NCBI GenBank assembly: GCA_965208325.1 | Contig: OZ242326.1 | Coordinates: 3,648,001 to 3,712,000, forward strand | Direction of reading: 5' to 3' | Length of the DNA: 64,000 nt | From: Candidatus Poribacteria bacterium | GTDB taxonomy: Bacteria > Poribacteria > WGA-4E > PCPOR2b | In this document: positions 6,769-36,349 of the stretch, in pieces | Position numbering within the stretch: the stretch's first letter is position 1 | Layout of the letters: each line of letters opens with the position of its first letter | Notes under the pieces: generated by a model | Database searches by the model: none | Told to the model about the DNA's origin: nothing | The model's input: only the letters and a program-made list of their open reading frames with translations | Program-made: the position numbers and the translations under genes

Positions 6769-9132
6769 ATGACTAGACCAATTCGGCTTTTGACTTTTTT
6801 GTTGCTGGTCTGCGCCGCGGGCGGGGTATACCTGTTGCCGTGCGGGTATGCCGAACCGGACGAGCCGGTTTTCAGCCTGAGTTGCCGCGACGCCGGATTA
6901 CGGGACGTATTGGGCAATCTAGCGAACCAGAAGGGTGTGAACCTTGCGGGACTGGATGTGATAGCGCCAAGCGTGACGCTCACGGCGAACCTGAGCGTCG
7001 TTCCGCTAGAATCGGGGTTGCGTGCGTTGTTGGAGCCTCGCGGTTTTACGCTTGAGAAGCGCGGCGGCATCTACTTTATCGGTCAGGACGCACAAATGGC
7101 TCGCGGTCTATCGTTGAGCGTTTCCGAAGGCCGCCTGACGGTTGACGCTAACCGTGTTGATGTGAATGATGTGGTTCGTGCTTTGGCGTCGTCGGGTATT
7201 AGCATATCGAGCGCATCCAACTTGACTGGGCAGGTGACTGCGCATCTGCGTTCTGAACCGTTGGAATCCGCGTTGCGTGTGTTGTTGGCGGACTTCACAC
7301 TTCAGGATTTAGAAGGCATCTACCGTGTCGAACCACCGCGTAATCTGCGGGAATCGGGATTGACGATGCTGATTACGGACGGCGTTGTTTCGATTGCGGC
7401 TGAAGGCGCGAGTTTGAGTTTGCTGCTGTCGGAGTTGGCTGCGCGTACAAGAATTAACCTGTCCGTTGTCGGGGACATGAAGCGCCAAGTTACGTTGCGT
7501 CTGGATAACCGAACCGTTTCGGAACTATTAGCGGACTTGGCAGTGATGACGGGCTTTACGTATCGTCAAGTCGATGATTTGCACTTCTTTGGCAAACCTG
7601 AAATAAAACCCGATGTAGTGAATCCGCTGATTGAGCGCAAGACTATCTGGTTAAAGCACCTTGTGGCGGACACGGTTCTCAACCTGCTGCCGATTCACAT
7701 CCCCAAGCAAAATGTCGTGGTGTCGGCGTCGCACAACACGGTGACAGTTGTGGGGTCACGGCAGTTGGTAAGCGAGGCGGAACAGTTTTTGTTAGAACTG
7801 GACGCCGAGGACGATGCGATACGCGGTCGAGAGGGAAACGGCGCCATAGCGGTCGAAGTGGACAGGGAGACCGGACGGCTGAGCGTAGACCTATTGAATG
7901 CGCCTCGTTTCGATGCGGTGCGCGAGCTTTCGGTCGCGGCGGGTTTTGATATGGTGTTTTTGGACGGTTCGGATTTGCAGCCGGAGCCGTCAAGTTCATC
8001 GGGGTCTACGATTCAGCGTAGCGTTCCCGACCCGCCGCCGAGTCCATCGACCGAAACAGTTACGTTGCGCCAAATGGGTGCGACGTTGGATTCGGTCCTG
8101 TCGGCGCTGTTTTTGGGGTCAAGCTACGGGTACACATGGGCGGAATCAAATCCGCACGCCAAACAAATGCTGGTTATCGGCTCTGAAATGAAAGCGCCTT
8201 TTTCGGAATCTGCGTTGATTGCGCTGAATTATCTAGCAGTTCCGAAAGCCATGGAATTGTTGCCTGCGCCTCTGAAAGTGAACATCAGCCCGCTTACGGA
8301 CAGGAGCGCGTTGCTAGTGACGGGTTCGGCTGCGCGGATTGACGCATTTCGGAAATATCTGGAAACGATTGACGTGCCTCAACCGCAGGCGATGATTCAG
8401 CTTTACCTCTTGGAATTGACGAAGGGCAACCGCGATGAATTAGGGCTTACCGTCGGCGCGGTAGACAACCGGACGTCAATTGAAATCAAGGATGGATTTG
8501 GGTTAAGTTTTGACTCGATGGCGAGTGTGCCTGCGGCGTTTAGCGCGAAACTGGCTGCGTTAGTTGAACAGAACCGTGGCAAGGTGCTCGCAAATCCGTC
8601 GCTGGCTGTGGTGAATGGCGAGAAGGCATCGATTGATATTGGCGGGAAGCATCTGTTCGAGACTAACAACCCAATCTACCCGACGATTGGTGTTGGCGAG
8701 CCTTCGACAACCCCGGCGGTTGCAACTTATGGCGGGTATGCGCCTTCAATCTATCGCAGCCTGTTCACGATTGAAACCGGGATTCTGCTGGAATTGACTC
8801 CCGTTATCGGCGCGTCCGGAGAAGTCACGATGGCAATCCAACTTGCTATTCGGAACGCAGACCAGGTATCTCGGGAAGAATCGTCGTTGGATCAACGCCT
8901 GATACAGACGACAATCAGCGTCGCCGATCGGGGTGTTGTCGTGATTGGCGGGTTGCTCCAGGAGAAGGAGATACAAGAAGTTAGCCGTGTTCCAATTCTG
9001 AGTCGAATTCCGTTGTTGGGCGGGCTCCTGTTTACGTCAAAGGAGACCACGGTTGAGCAGACGGAGTTAATTGTGATTATCCAACCGAAGGTGATTAAAA
9101 GCGATGAATCGCATCTGTTTACAGATAACTGA
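6769..9132 (+). CDS. Outer-membrane secretin (GspD/PilQ family) with extended periplasmic STN/N domains
   Basis: Signal peptide from ATG 6769; about four repeated S/TxDxxxxxLxxVL N0/STN-like units; IDVPQPQAMIQ, KVLANPSL..VNGEKASI.IG, ETGILLELTP, VVIGGLL, VPILSRIPLLGGLLF and TELIVIIQPKVI secretin motifs. Confidence 0.95.
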   Translation: MTRPIRLLTFLLLVCAAGGVYLLPCGYAEPDEPVFSLSCRDAGLRDVLGNLANQKGVNLAGLDVIAPSVTLTANLSVVPLESGLRALLEPRGFTLEKRGGIYFIGQDAQMARGLSLSVSEGRLTVDANRVDVNDVVRALASSGISISSASNLTGQVTAHLRSEPLESALRVLLADFTLQDLEGIYRVEPPRNLRESGLTMLITDGVVSIAAEGASLSLLLSELAARTRINLSVVGDMKRQVTLRLDNRTVSELLADLAVMTGFTYRQVDDLHFFGKPEIKPDVVNPLIERKTIWLKHLVADTVLNLLPIHIPKQNVVVSASHNTVTVVGSRQLVSEAEQFLLELDAEDDAIRGREGNGAIAVEVDRETGRLSVDLLNAPRFDAVRELSVAAGFDMVFLDGSDLQPEPSSSSGSTIQRSVPDPPPSPSTETVTLRQMGATLDSVLSALFLGSSYGYTWAESNPHAKQMLVIGSEMKAPFSESALIALNYLAVPKAMELLPAPLKVNISPLTDRSALLVTGSAARIDAFRKYLETIDVPQPQAMIQLYLLELTKGNRDELGLTVGAVDNRTSIEIKDGFGLSFDSMASVPAAFSAKLAALVEQNRGKVLANPSLAVVNGEKASIDIGGKHLFETNNPIYPTIGVGEPSTTPAVATYGGYAPSIYRSLFTIETGILLELTPVIGASGEVTMAIQLAIRNADQVSREESSLDQRLIQTTISVADRGVVVIGGLLQEKEIQEVSRVPILSRIPLLGGLLFTSKETTVEQTELIVIIQPKVIKSDESHLFTDN

Positions 9133-10513
9133 TAGGACAATTCGAAAATCCGATATGGTGTGGGGCAGTGGACGTTGGACGTGTGTTCAGTCGGATTCGC
9201 GGCAATTGACCGCGGACGACGCAATAAGTGACCCGTTATCTTACCCCGACCTTGCGGACGTGGTGCGTGAGTTGCTTGCGGACGCAAAGTCAAAACCGGT
9301 ATTAATTTCACTGTCGAGCAGCGAGATACTGCTGAAATGGATTGAGTTGCCGAATGCAATCCCGCAAGCTGATCCACAGATGCAAAACCTTGCGGTTAAA
9401 ACTCTACTGGAGAATGAGACCTACATCCCTATCGCGCTTGGCGGCGCAGCTTACGATTTTCAACTGTTGAGCCCGAAGACGCTCTTAATCGCTTGGATGC
9501 GGAAGGGCAGGCTCGTGTCATTCTTCGAGCAGCTTGCCGGAGTTGATTTAATCTATCTTAGCCCGCAATCGGTGACGGTAGCGAATCAACTGCTCTGGTA
9601 TGGTTCGAATCGAATGTGCGGCGTGCATATAGACGGCGCTATGTGTGATTTGGCTGTTGTCGATTCGGGCGACCTCTGCTTAGGGCGCAGCTTTTTTTTC
9701 GGAGATGCCAGCCAACTGTTGCGGACGATTCGGCAAAGCCTTGTCAACTGTCCGAATCCGAGGGATGCGCCTCTGACACGGATTGTCCTGTTTCGCGGCT
9801 CATCCGTATTAACCGCCAATCAGCTGGCGGAACAGTTTGGGGTTGAAGTTACGGAATCTAGTTTCGATTGGGCGGCTGCACTATCGAAACCGATGCAAGA
9901 ATCCGGACGGGCGGATTCGATTCGGATGAACCTACTCGAGCCGGTGCTTGCCGAGAAAGTTTTGCAGCAGAAGCTAAGGCGAAAGCATCGCTTGGTGCGA
10001 GCGATTCCAATTGCAGCGATACTGATGCTAGCCGGTGCTAATGTGACGCTCTACGATTGGATTCAATCAAAGCATGTAGATATCAACACGATGCGTTTAG
10101 ACCGGTCGGAGATGAAACGATTACAGGCTGAAACCGAATCGCTGGGTGAGCGATATGCAACTCATCAAAAGTCGCTTGCGCAACTCGCATGGGGGGAGCG
10201 TCAATTTCCGCCGTTGGCGGAGCGATTGGTTCAGTTAGCGAATCGCATCCCGGCGTCGGTACGGCTCACGGAAATCAAAACGGTTTCGCAGCCGCAATCG
10301 ACGCAAGCTCGCGCCGATTTTGACGCCCGCAAAGTGCTGATGGTAGTGGGAGTTGCGCCAAGCCAAGCGGAGATAAATGAGTTTCGGGCTGCCCTGGTCA
10401 CCCAATCGCAATTCGCGTCTGTGCGTCAGGTCAAGACTGAACCGACGCTTATTGACGGCAATCGGAGGTTGGAGTTTACACTGGCTCTGACCTCTGCTGA
10501 AGGAGAACAATAA
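9104..10513 (+). CDS. PilM/PilN (GspL)-like inner-membrane assembly protein, apparently fused
   Basis: Degenerate actin-like N-terminal part, MNLL motif, one TM helix, coiled coil, then IPASVRLTEI...VGVA...F..V ferredoxin-like PilN pattern; overlaps the secretin end. Confidence 0.75.
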   Translation: MNRICLQITDRTIRKSDMVWGSGRWTCVQSDSRQLTADDAISDPLSYPDLADVVRELLADAKSKPVLISLSSSEILLKWIELPNAIPQADPQMQNLAVKTLLENETYIPIALGGAAYDFQLLSPKTLLIAWMRKGRLVSFFEQLAGVDLIYLSPQSVTVANQLLWYGSNRMCGVHIDGAMCDLAVVDSGDLCLGRSFFFGDASQLLRTIRQSLVNCPNPRDAPLTRIVLFRGSSVLTANQLAEQFGVEVTESSFDWAAALSKPMQESGRADSIRMNLLEPVLAEKVLQQKLRRKHRLVRAIPIAAILMLAGANVTLYDWIQSKHVDINTMRLDRSEMKRLQAETESLGERYATHQKSLAQLAWGERQFPPLAERLVQLANRIPASVRLTEIKTVSQPQSTQARADFDARKVLMVVGVAPSQAEINEFRAALVTQSQFASVRQVKTEPTLIDGNRRLEFTLALTSAEGEQ

Positions 10514-35791: not shown

Positions 35792-35848
35792 ACCCATACC
35801 TTAAACCGCGGAGGAAAATAAACACCTTAATCTAAAGGAGAAGAACGC

Positions 35849-36349
35849 ATGACAAGAAACATCTACGCTTTAATCATTTTGTTGTTATTTGGTTTTTCTA
35901 GCACGGTAGTGGGTCAGTTTGGCGACCCGGTGCCGCGGTATCCACAAGAGATGGACGGCCCGGTCAATATGAAAAACCGTTCGCTTTATTTTTCGGCGAC
36001 GGATTTGGCTATTCCGGGGCGCGGTATCGGAATTGAGTTTACCCGCTATCACAATTCCGCCGGAATCCACGGTTCGACGAACGGGACATCTTATATCGGA
36101 CCTAAATGGAACCACAACTACCAATGGGAGATACGGTTTGGGGGGTCGAGGTCTGGTTATACCTGGGTGTGGAGAGACGGGCAGTCTTTTTATGAGCGTA
36201 GTCCCTATACGGTTACGATAATTACCGGCAGCGGTACGAAACAGAGCTTTACGGCTTCCGGCTCACGGCTCGATCAATCGGGTTGGGAGAGTCGAGCGAC
36301 ATTTAGCCCCAAAACCGGGGTGCGTGCCAGCTTGAAGTTTGAACAGTGA
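35849..36349 (+). pseudogene. Rhs4: truncated 5' fragment nearly identical to the Rhs3 N-terminus
   Basis: After a distinct signal peptide the DNA matches Rhs3 (one YYNS/YHNS difference seen) up to LKFEQ, then breaks at 36347 into a repeat element. Confidence 0.9.

Follow-up and report, generated by a model that had tools for sequence, protein, structure and literature searches.

A putatively mobile secretin-Rhs island in Candidatus Poribacteria: a possible Rhs exit that borrows a distant type II secretion motor

A Sec- and type II secretion system (T2SS)-dependent class of Rhs polymorphic toxins was described by Zhang, de Souza, Anantharaman, Iyer and Aravind (2012; PMC3482391). In 300,000 characters of that paper's text there are 0 occurrences of "secretin", and its Table 1 gives no signature neighbourhood gene for the class; the immunity family ImmHEAT is also named there. 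Bd0109 and bd3309 of Bdellovibrio, RHS-repeat proteins whose genes adjoin pilQ- or pilus-type genes, form a different case: in the sections of Capeness et al. (PMC3818213) that deal with them, Bd0109 affects pilus extrusion and retraction and is read not as a toxin but as a regulator of the pilus, and a YD-repeat mutant of Myxococcus is reported that fails to retract its pili. Those sections describe neither a conserved secretin-Rhs island nor immunity genes nor arrays of toxins.

Here we analysed a 64,000-nucleotide stretch of DNA (the window) from a Candidatus Poribacteria genome (G000; 4.7 Mb, one contig, 95.6% complete). It encodes a secretin, a GspL-like PilM-PilN fusion, a PilO/GspC-like protein, a CBM-fold protein predicted to be secreted (CBM400), three full putative Rhs toxins with predicted Sec signals, an Rhs N-terminal fragment of 166 aa, and candidate immunity proteins that would be exported, as follows:

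6769..9132, + strand: secretin (Pfam; the ORF opens at 6685, probable start 6769)
9104..10513, + strand: GspL-like PilM-PilN fusion (AlphaFold and Foldseek; Pfam PilN sub-threshold)
10513..11436, + strand: PilO-like protein with a C-terminal GspC-HR/PilP-like end (weak assignment)
11484..12605, + strand: CBM400 (GGAGG 7 nt 5' of the true start; fold from AlphaFold/Foldseek)
12613..12698, + strand: hairpin in the CBM400-Rhs1 gap (26-bp main stem plus 5 outer pairs)
12726..17648, + strand: Rhs1, 1640 aa (Pfam, NCBIfam; GGAGG also 5' of the start)
17668..21353, + strand: five exported, mostly lipoprotein-like genes, candidate immunity or accessory
21316..21879, + strand: 187-aa cytoplasmic ORF, after the five exported genes
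21920..26881, + strand: Rhs2 (probable start 21920), of Rhs1-like build with a different C-terminal domain
26897..27877, + strand: HEAT-repeat lipoprotein, candidate immunity protein (ImmHEAT-like; Pfam)
27917..32911, + strand: Rhs3 (probable start 27917), of Rhs1-like build with an HExxH-type C-terminal domain
32930..35505, + strand: HEAT-repeat exported protein (420 aa) and a split paralogue (ORF calls)
35849..36349, + strand: Rhs N-terminal fragment ("Rhs4"), 166 aa, ending at a stop codon

ORF calls placed all of these genes on the + strand, at the coordinates given in an earlier note on this DNA. That note had described a co-oriented cluster with short or overlapping junctions, and this was borne out: the secretin and fusion genes overlap by 29 nt and the fusion and PilO-like genes by 1 nt, with gaps of 47 nt between the PilO-like gene and CBM400 and of 120 nt between CBM400 and Rhs1. 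Its array of four Rhs genes stood for Rhs1-3, which are full length; "Rhs4" was rejected as a full gene, its ORF stopping after 166 aa that are near-identical to the N-terminus of Rhs3. The note was also right that the window holds no secretion ATPase, platform or pilin, since Pfam gave zero T2SSE, T2SSF and N_methyl matches there, i.e., no GspE, GspF or pseudopilin is encoded with the secretin.

The Met at 6769 begins a signal-peptide-like stretch within the secretin ORF (6685-9132). Besides a Secretin_N domain and the C-terminal secretin domain, the protein has some three STN/N0-like repeats, with all Pfam matches over cut-off (Secretin, PF00263, 111 bits; Secretin_N, PF03958, 37.7; STN, PF07660, 31), and so has the type II feature of N0/N1 domains combined with a C-terminal secretin domain. 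Nevertheless, it fell below every NCBIfam equivalog cut-off (GspD, 141 bits versus 351; PilQ, 131 versus 284). The nearest solved structure was PilQ (E = 2e-16), with the match confined to the C-domain.

The second protein, noted earlier as PilM/N-like, deserved that label. Its AlphaFold model (pLDDT 81) has a cytoplasmic actin-like domain, a long membrane/coiled-coil helix and a periplasmic ferredoxin-like domain; in Foldseek it matched PilM (5eou, E = 1e-15) and cyto-EpsL (1yf5, TMt 0.71), and its cytoplasmic domain matched the GspL chain of the solved GspE-GspL complex 4pht (TMt 0.70). The Pfam PilN match was just under the cut-off (22.6 versus 22.8 bits), and a PilM_2 signal was absent at E <= 0.01, although orthologues matched both PilM_2 and PilN and the PilM_2 signal was present in unlinked ones. 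For the PilO-like protein the matches were to Pfam T2SSC (E = 8e-4; 19.7 bits, below the cut-off of 27) and NCBIfam GspC (E = 0.002), and its orthologues matched Pfam PilO. The reading frames of this triad were intact in G000 and in three other genomes (G035, G024 and G028), and dN/dS values indicated purifying selection (secretin, 0.15-0.27; PilMN, 0.19-0.33; PilOP, 0.28-0.37; CBM400, 0.25-0.30).

Orphan secretins can work with a T2SS encoded elsewhere, e.g., XqhA of P. aeruginosa. The triad shares with T2SSs, including those with orphan secretins, a secretin, a GspL-like protein, a weakly matching GspC-like protein and a motor encoded elsewhere in the genome, and folded periplasmic cargo, a T2SS trait, is what we propose for it. 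Unlike a T2SS locus, it lacks GspE, GspF and pseudopilin genes, its secretin lies under the GspD and PilQ equivalog cut-offs and carries tandem STN-like N-domains, and the proposed Rhs cargo, at ~180 kDa, would be unusually large. With the type IVa pilus PilMNOPQ set it has in common gene content (here with the secretin gene first), a PilM-like actin fold and PilN/PilO-like domains, but PilM and PilN are fused, Pfam reported no AMIN domain, and the genome has no pilin, PilB/PilT or PilC beyond the T2SS set.

As judged by eye, all four Rhs N-termini have a hydrophobic signal-peptide-like segment ending in VVA, VVG or VES, followed by QFGDPVP. This agrees with the earlier claim of a signal peptide plus QFGDPV on every Rhs, and extends to the aligned family: among its 22 members, Q23, F24, G25, P29, P32, D36 and G37 were invariant, and a hydrophobic N-terminus (again by eye) preceded an invariant QFG..VP in 22/22. 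Rhs1 continues with DUF6531, an RHS shell, a Laminin_G_3 insert (aa 1189-1333), the Rhs core (aa 1371-1445) and an HExxH C-terminal domain. Pfam matches in the Rhs proteins were DUF6531, RHS_repeat and Laminin_G_3, plus sub-threshold Laminin_G_1/2, and, as the note had said, there was no match to PAAR, VgrG or WXG. RHS/YD repeats (PF05593) matched with E values of 2e-15 (Rhs1), 1e-26 (Rhs2) and 1e-23 (Rhs3), and TIGR01643 was also matched; the Rhs-associated core of Rhs1 (TIGR03696) scored 73 bits against a cut-off of 32.5, and the 22-row alignment showed this core to be conserved. Among Rhs1-3 the C-terminal domain varies, with weak toxin-domain matches (Peptidase_M91 for Rhs1, E = 0.014; Peptidase_M76 for Rhs3, E = 0.0067), and exported or lipoprotein-like genes lie behind each. 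Orphan Rhs C-terminal modules were present at related loci. Elsewhere in G000, RHS repeats occurred at one locus only, 1.3 Mb away, where a fourth full Rhs lies beside only a 79-aa secretin relic.

The five genes behind Rhs1 encode a 346-aa beta-propeller-like protein, a 263-aa Big_5 protein, paralogues of 176 and 198 aa and a 207-aa protein; their homologues trail Rhs genes at the second G000 locus and in G035. The split paralogue of the 420-aa HEAT protein consists of an N-terminal part (ORF 34217-34618) and a C-terminal part (34648-35505). In CBM400, which would be secreted, a signal peptide and a Gly-rich linker are combined with a CBM-type beta-sandwich and a helical bundle. The earlier CBM-like label was supported by its fold: in Foldseek, the model (pLDDT 73) matched CBM4/16/35-type jelly rolls and phage fibre tips, with E values from 1e-6 to 1e-4. 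CBM400 was found immediately 5' of an Rhs in 7/7 places, in 6 genomes, and on this evidence of gene order is the conserved upstream partner of signal-peptide, QFGDPVP-type Rhs proteins. The pair CBM400 plus Rhs is the tightest unit in the dataset, and is also found in a complete genome without any triad.

With the Sec/T2SS class of PMC3482391 the window Rhs proteins share RHS repeats and an Rhs core and, as predicted features, a signal peptide, a variable C-terminal toxin (HExxH metallopeptidase types included) and HEAT-type immunity (ImmHEAT); unlike that class as described there, they are linked to a secretin module throughout one clade and have a CBM-fold partner gene 5' of the Rhs. Like T6SS Rhs effectors and TcB/TcC cocoons they would form an Rhs cage that has an autoproteolytic core and encloses the C-terminal toxin, but they differ in having a Sec signal peptide (by eye) and no PAAR, VgrG, sheath, SpvB or TcA-type domain found by Pfam. 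Identity as a T6SS Rhs effector was not supported: Pfam gave no match to a PAAR, VgrG or prePAAR-TMD N-terminus in the proteins, and the 95.6%-complete G000 genome gave 0 matches each for PAAR and the sheath protein VipB/TssC. Identity as the BC cocoon of a Tc toxin was not supported either, Pfam reporting no SpvB/TcB region and no TcA-like partner among the window ORFs scanned.

The sole motor set that a search found elsewhere in G000 is encoded by a separate T2SS cluster (1.259-1.265 Mb, at a distance of 2.4 Mb from the window), which has a single GspE, a single GspF and four pseudopilins together with a second secretin, i.e., the 1004-aa GspD of the general T2SS. Genome-wide, Pfam gave 1 match to T2SSE, 2 to T2SSF (one 415-aa GspF gene) and 4 to N_methyl; beyond the genes of this cluster there was no type IVa pilus set (pilin, PilB/PilT, PilC).

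On its phylogeny, the window secretin belongs to a distinct family of motor-less triads. In a tree of 55 rows, a 32-row clade (SH-aLRT 100, stem 0.59) contained all 15 rows linked to Rhs/CBM400, 0/9 of those in which the secretin stands alone and 0/3 of those with PilMN only. For 5 of the 15 linked rows the linkage was observed in the locus itself, and for 10 it was deduced from contigs of identical length in the two protein searches (8 of them <=75 kb, 2 large). A 29-row tree agreed on this clade, the stem being 0.59-0.83 changes/site across both. Thus the closest secretin homologues were Rhs/CBM400-linked, rather than in the ordinary T4P, T2SS or competence operons that the earlier note had considered. 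More distant members (34-47% identity) were alone or with PilMN/PilO only, and none of the unlinked members examined was in an ordinary operon of those three kinds. Outside the linked clade no Rhs link was found in G029, G032, G007 or G008, nor at 17 metagenome loci, where 0/17 had an Rhs or CBM400 match and only 7/17 have at least 3 kb downstream of the secretin. Secretin-Rhs islands are carried by some sponge-symbiont Poribacteria.

Between G000 and its sister species G035, GspD is 97% identical and right-flank DNA 94%, whereas the secretins are 71% and the island proteins 52-71% identical, and the G035 island lies ~1.36 Mb from the flank orthologous to that of the window, at a different chromosomal site. 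Because the G035 copy is both diverged and displaced, the island appears to move as a unit. Gene order was kept while secretin identity dropped to ~70% and intergenic spacers changed (from 47 nt to ~1.2 kb between the triad and CBM400), and co-residence, judged from same-size contigs, extends down to 50-53% identity. Two congeners on single contigs (G033 and G034; 96% and 94% complete) had no PilMN, secretin orthologue or cassette. In G055 a secretin fragment abuts an Rhs fragment, and G031 has a truncated secretin, no PilMN and no Rhs match; both modules thus seem to have been lost together in these genomes. In G051 (single contig, 97% complete) CBM400 is intact, beside a 1611-aa Rhs with QFGDPVP, and a GspD orthologue (68% identity) is retained, but a PilMN homologue, an orthologue of the window secretin and any relic at the locus are missing. 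The Rhs of the QFGDPVP family in G048 is intact, with neither triad nor CBM400.

We tentatively favor the reading that this is a horizontally mobile accessory island of two modules with facultative coupling, module A being an Rhs exit that docks on the distant T2SS motor. Module A would be a motor-less envelope-spanning set (secretin, GspL-like fusion, PilO/GspC-like protein), and module B a putative polymorphic-toxin cassette in which lectin-like CBM400 accompanies Rhs cages that are exported by Sec and vary in their C-terminal toxins (two with HExxH), and exported immunity-like lipoproteins. Rhs and CBM400 would cross the inner membrane via Sec, as their signal peptides (by eye) suggest, and the cage, as in established Rhs biology, would fold in the periplasm, enclosing the toxin. 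In the linked clade, module A may then provide the outer-membrane exit, as an alternative secretin/GspL/GspC-like front end on the sole GspE/GspF/pseudopilin motor 2.4 Mb away, and CBM400 and the Laminin_G insert of the cage may bind target glycans. A cassette lacking module A presumably uses the general T2SS or another release route. The exit reading is favored because linkage is confined to one well-supported secretin clade, because the island seems to move, and the modules to be lost, as one, because the triad genes, CBM400 and Rhs1 are co-oriented, because the triad and CBM400 are under purifying selection, because the fusion resembles GspE-bound GspL and the genome has exactly one GspE, and because G000 has no VipB/TssC or PAAR match. 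It is disfavored because G051 and G048 have family Rhs proteins without the triad, because no link to Rhs was found for the family members examined outside that clade, because the spacing between module A and CBM400 varies and a strong hairpin splits CBM400 from Rhs1, and because module A has no motor, pilin or platform of its own. Size also counts against this reading, since an Rhs cocoon that carries an additional lectin domain would match or exceed the reported lumen width of open secretins. The earlier note had proposed dedicated Rhs export through the local secretin. Linkage of the closest homologues upholds part of this, and a dedicated exit borrowing the T2SS motor is plausible, if short of probable; "dedicated" is too strong because G051 has CBM400 and Rhs but no triad, because the fourth full G000 Rhs adjoins only a secretin relic, and because three triad-bearing genomes (G032, G036 and G008; 79-91% complete, 730-1190 contigs) gave no Rhs match.

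The one-clade linkage could be mere inherited adjacency carried along in island transfer. It is possible, and only slightly less likely than the exit reading, that the modules are not functionally coupled at all, the Rhs cassette having once inserted 3' of an existing motor-less triad with which it has since been co-inherited and co-transferred; Rhs would then leave via the 1004-aa GspD, vesicles or lysis, and the triad would have another job. Consistent with this, the triad family predates the link and extends beyond it, with unlinked members in Poribacteria and metagenomes, CBM400 plus Rhs stands alone in G051 and at the second G000 locus, G051 keeps GspD, and Table 1 of PMC3482391 classes signal-peptide Rhs as "T2SS/Sec-dependent" without a signature neighbour. 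However, conservation of gene order and co-residence across such divergence, while spacers changed, argues against it, as do the joint absence of the modules in sister species and their joint decay in G055 and G031, and the long stem of the linked clade suggests a shift at the time of linkage. That Rhs is instead a partner of a pilus-like or surface machine, displayed at or regulating the secretin complex rather than being cargo, is unlikely: such a role has been proposed for Bd0109 and other RHS genes beside pilus genes (PMC3818213, in the sections cited above), but the window proteins bear polymorphic-toxin marks (Rhs core, variable C-terminal domains, immunity-like genes, orphan C-terminal modules), and the pilins of G000 are limited to the four T2SS pseudopilins, with no second ATPase. 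Least likely is the reading of the triad as a relic in decay, left by a lost pilus or secretion system and without a present function. Motor genes are missing nearby, secretin relics or pseudogenes occur in G031, in G055 and at the second G000 locus, and the window fusion lacks the PilM_2 signal seen in unlinked orthologues; against this stand the intact frames in four genomes, dN/dS values of 0.15-0.37 and the confident PilM/GspL-PilN fold model.

The hairpin between CBM400 and Rhs1 had a predicted energy of -46.5 kcal/mol (z = -4.7), with no U tract behind it. It is unique in the G000 genome, and G035 has a hairpin at the same place.

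Without exception, the long ORFs between 6.7 and 36.3 kb of the window lie on the plus strand. Among them are three genes that we term the triad, i.e., those for a secretin, a PilM-PilN fusion (PilMN) and a PilO/GspC-like protein (PilOP), followed by a cassette of CBM400 (a secreted CBM-fold protein), Rhs toxins and immunity-like genes. The triad genes and CBM400 are as follows:

6685/6769-9132, plus strand, secretin; Pfam Secretin, Secretin_N and STN, each over its cut-off
9104-10513, plus strand, PilMN fusion protein; overlaps the secretin stop
10513-11436, plus strand, PilOP; PilO-like; C-terminus weakly GspC-like, under the threshold; orthologues match PilO
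11484-12605, plus strand, CBM400; strong GGAGG upstream; signal peptide, Gly-rich linker, beta-sandwich and helical bundle

The secretin remained under every NCBIfam equivalog cut-off (141 of 351 bits for GspD, 131 of 284 for PilQ) and, compared by sequence with solved structures, was about equally close to PilQ, GspD and phage pIV, in the C-domain only. NCBIfam gave zero matches for PilMN and for CBM400. A model of PilMN made from 10 orthologues (pLDDT 81) had three parts, a cytoplasmic domain of actin-like fold, a helix of 89 residues (aa 279-367) and a periplasmic domain of ferredoxin-like fold; Foldseek matched it to PilM (5eou, E 1e-15), to cyto-EpsL (1yf5, TMt 0.71) and, within the GspE-GspL complex, to the GspL chain (4pht, TMt 0.70). 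Because of this three-part model and these matches, the protein is, as modelled, a GspL-type PilM-PilN fusion.

The earlier note had proposed that this secretin is the exit for Sec-exported Rhs1-4, with a motor encoded elsewhere or a reduced machine. As it had stated, the window holds no secretion motor, its remainder holding genes for LRR proteins whose C-terminal domains are of T9SS type, along with regulators and biosynthetic genes. The window belongs to a genome assembled as one 4.71-Mb contig (95.6% complete), and in it a single distal motor set was found, at 1.259-1.274 Mb, in a gene cluster of T2SS type. Besides the sole T2SSE ATPase and the sole T2SSF protein, this cluster contains all four N_methyl pseudopilins, a GspK-like gene, its own PilM-like gene and a 1004-aa GspD, the other of the genome's two secretins. 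VipB/TssC and PAAR had zero matches across this 95.6%-complete genome. Delivery by a T6SS, a T9SS or a Tc-type system was rejected on account of the absence of PAAR, VgrG and sheath, of TcA among the window ORFs scanned, and of a C-terminal sorting domain in the Rhs proteins.

In a structure search, the CBM400 sandwich resembled CBM4/16/35-type modules and phage fibre tips; the ESM Atlas returned only unnamed clusters and one weak lead (CBM_4_9, on 32% of members, score 0.85). The Rhs array proved shorter than first described: Rhs1 (1640 aa), Rhs2 and Rhs3 (~1650-1665 aa from probable starts) are full-size, but "Rhs4" is a 166-aa N-terminal fragment. Rhs1-3 share a layout of hydrophobic N-terminus, QFGDPVP, DUF6531, RHS repeats, a Laminin_G_3 insert, the Rhs core and a C-terminal domain. 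The hydrophobic segment followed by QFGDPV(P), on which the note had relied, is present, although its identity as a signal peptide was, as for all signal peptides here, called by eye. The C-terminal domain differs among the three proteins; two carry HExxH, with only weak zincin matches. The Laminin_G_3 (ConA-like lectin) insert is encoded at 16290-16724 (Rhs1 aa 1189-1333) and has an equivalent position in Rhs2 and Rhs3, i.e., in the Rhs shell directly before the core; it is kept in most family members and may decorate the outside for receptor binding. At the predicted mature N-terminus (12792-12836; Rhs1 aa 23-37) is a motif, Q-F-G-x3-P-x2-P-x3-D-G, of which Q23, F24, G25, P29, P32, D36 and G37 are invariant in 22/22 aligned family members. 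Complex prediction with Rhs1 aa 23-480 and CBM400 aa 55-350 was uninformative either way (score 0.01, mark 0.32).

Most genes downstream of the Rhs genes have lipoprotein- or signal-peptide-like N-termini, and several encode HEAT-repeat proteins; such exported products would fit toxins whose site of action, or of necessary neutralisation, is the periplasm. A paralogue of the 420-aa HEAT protein occupies 34217-35505 as two separate ORFs (133 and 285 aa).

RHS repeats occur at only one other place in this genome, at 2.36 Mb. This second locus (G000:C1:2352000-2369200, minus strand) encodes a CBM400 paralogue and a QFGDPVP-bearing Rhs of 1639 aa. It also has homologues of the HEAT genes and of the 176-, 198- and 263-aa lipoproteins of the window, and an orphan Rhs2-like C-terminal/immunity module with a homologue of HEAT326. 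Upstream of its CBM400 is a 79-aa secretin relic (aa 174-252, 40% identity, E 4.5e-13), and neither PilMN nor PilOP is left there.

We surveyed 176 species genomes of the phylum, many of the relatives being fragmented assemblies from which Rhs genes may be missing. PilMN homologues were found in 8/176, the Rhs N-terminal region (500 aa) in 8/176 and CBM400 in 6/176. Secretin matches, counted if they reached past the generic C-domain or exceeded 40% identity, occurred in 12 genomes, four of these being fragments or pseudogenes. The complete order secretin-PilMN-PilOP-CBM400-Rhs was present in four genomes (G000, the window's own; its sister species G035; G024; and G028). Two others hold remnants: in G055, secretin aa 39-353 abuts Rhs from aa ~780 onward, and in G031 a truncated secretin contains stops, with PilMN and Rhs matches absent genome-wide. 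G033 and G034, which belong to the window's genus and are each assembled as one contig, lacked all four components.

CBM400 lay directly upstream of the Rhs N-terminus in 7/7 places, making these two the tightest gene pair. Each module also occurs in some cases without the other. G051 (97% complete, one contig) encodes CBM400 and an intact Rhs bearing the N-terminal motif, with the triad nowhere in the genome and the locus itself free of relics. Rhs members of the family occur without CBM400 in G048 and G054; the motif is altered in G048 (the mature N-terminus reads QFTAYEDLVPRYP), and in G054 the gene is interrupted by an insertion element. In G007, the CBM400-Rhs pair, the secretin and PilMN-PilO are each on their own contig. 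A relaxed tblastn (E up to 5) revealed no credible triad relic at the Rhs loci of G051, G048, G054 and G007. Conversely, G029, G032, G007 and G008 have an orthologous secretin with only unrelated genes around it, the PilMN-PilO pair of G029 and G007 being located away from it. The cassette may extend beyond Poribacteria. Two CBM400 homologues among the protein-search matches (P0042/P0043) differ in context: one is labelled as from a Gammaproteobacteria MAG, and the other is on a 3.0-Mb contig with no family secretin among the matches listed for it.

A metagenome scan with an 8-row secretin alignment yielded 80 loci, 17 of which matched over most of the protein (34-45% identity). The secretin was followed by PilMN and/or PilO(P) in three of the 17 (L074, L081 and L084); Rhs or CBM400 matched in none of the 17, only seven of which had at least 3 kb of downstream sequence. 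Loci L073-L089, these three included, belong to a wider family of secretin, PilM-PilN fusion and PilO outside the Rhs-linked clade, and no ATPase, platform or pilin was seen in the available flanks of its sets.

In trees from a quick search, with SH-aLRT as sole support and fragmentary rows included, a long, fully supported stem parted the triad secretin family from GspD as well as from a class of ~810-aa secretins. One clade (SH-aLRT 100) held every row linked to Rhs or CBM400 and zero unlinked rows; it comprised 7/29 rows (stem 0.83) in the smaller tree and 32/55 (stem 0.59) in the larger. Of the latter 32, 17 had no context information and 15 were linked, 10 of them by inference only, i.e., secretin and CBM400 matches from two independent protein searches shared a contig size (38657, 16606, 7554, 65121, 15222, 74920, 54399, 11439, 667874 or 5089639), which suggests co-residence, not adjacency. 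Three of these ten sizes recurred among Rhs matches. Rhs linkage is confined to one distinct clade; deeper family members are unlinked.

We compared the divergence of the island with that of the genomes, relatedness being proxied by one housekeeping protein and one flank.

Identity to G000 of island and reference sequences
Sequence; G035; G024 / G028
GspD (T2SS secretin); 97%; 69% / 68%
Window right flank (DNA); 94%; not listed
Island secretin; 70-71%; 72-73%
PilMN; 52%; 53%
PilOP; 60%; 56% / 52%
CBM400; 64%; 62%

For G033, GspD identity to G000 was 87%. In G035, the island (2.46-2.48 Mb) and the stretch orthologous to the window's right flank are ~1.36 Mb apart. Given this divergence and displacement, the two sister species do not hold recent vertical copies of the island, and the composite island was most likely acquired separately or exchanged. 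For the four module genes, dN/dS was 0.15-0.37 (NG86, three pairwise comparisons), and they are therefore under purifying selection.

The cargo specificity of a T2SS is set by the secretin and GspC, and an orphan secretin, XqhA, is able to serve a T2SS encoded elsewhere. Possibly, the secretin module described here is the outer-membrane exit for Rhs cages, using the T2SS motor in trans, in which case a single triad would serve both Rhs loci of G000. The main rival, in our estimation only slightly less likely, is that the adjacency is inherited and that Rhs proteins are exported through the general T2SS or by another route. The one-clade linkage speaks for a "dedicated" Rhs secretin, as the earlier note had it; against that adjective stand the G051 cassette without a triad, the G048 Rhs protein with neither triad nor CBM400, and the unlinked triads. 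In G051-type genomes, export would have to be by something other than the triad. Facultative coupling of triad and cassette fits all of the data. A fuller and more doubtful version of export through the triad is a specialised T2SS branch, in which an alternative front end (secretin, GspL-like and PilO/GspC-like proteins), transferred horizontally with its cargo genes, would plug into the host's single housekeeping motor and drive folded ~180-kDa Rhs cages, together with the CBM-fold partner, through the outer membrane. To our knowledge, such cages would rank among the largest cargo proposed for any secretin.

Outer-membrane crossing of signal-peptide Rhs (and MafB-like polymorphic) toxins in diderms lacks a known route, and a secretin module transferred along with these toxins is a concrete candidate. 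If export through the triad is correct, Sec-dependent Rhs toxins of diderm bacteria would for the first time have an outer-membrane route assigned to them, and the parent family would form a new class, that of motor-less secretin triads. Co-transfer also suggests that T2SS specificity may be swappable by mobile front-end modules, and the CBM400-Rhs pair and the invariant QFG..VP mature N-terminus offer new handles on cage targeting or assembly. As the organism is an uncultivated sponge symbiont, the immediate value lies in a hypothesis for heterologous tests. Literature titles and abstracts revealed no secretin-linked Rhs system. Signal-peptide Rhs toxins have already been classed as "T2SS/Sec-dependent", with the signature neighbourhood gene absent for that class in Table 1 and the word "secretin" not found in the text consulted (PMC3482391). 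In Bdellovibrio, RHS-repeat genes adjoining pilus genes were read as regulators (PMC3818213).

The gap between CBM400 and Rhs1 contains a hairpin (12613-12698; 26-bp main stem, -46.5 kcal/mol, z -4.7) that lacks a U tract. Because it has only one copy in the genome, we rejected its reading as a repeat element. G035 has a hairpin of other sequence in the same place, then a conserved stretch up to GGAGG, and the structure may act in RNA processing, RNA stability or attenuation. In a promoter and terminator scan of 6000-22000, counts were not above those of shuffles (13 vs 14.5; 16 vs 17.3). The island is flanked by large LRR and other proteins (3416-6136, 38065-41100, 41358-41933 and 42030-45689) ending in FlgD_ig / Por_Secre_tail (T9SS-type) domains, C-terminal segments that are much repeated across genomes of the genus. 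At the right edge, directly beyond the Rhs fragment, a gene on the minus strand (36870-37646) encodes an HNH-motif protein (weak match, E 0.0015).
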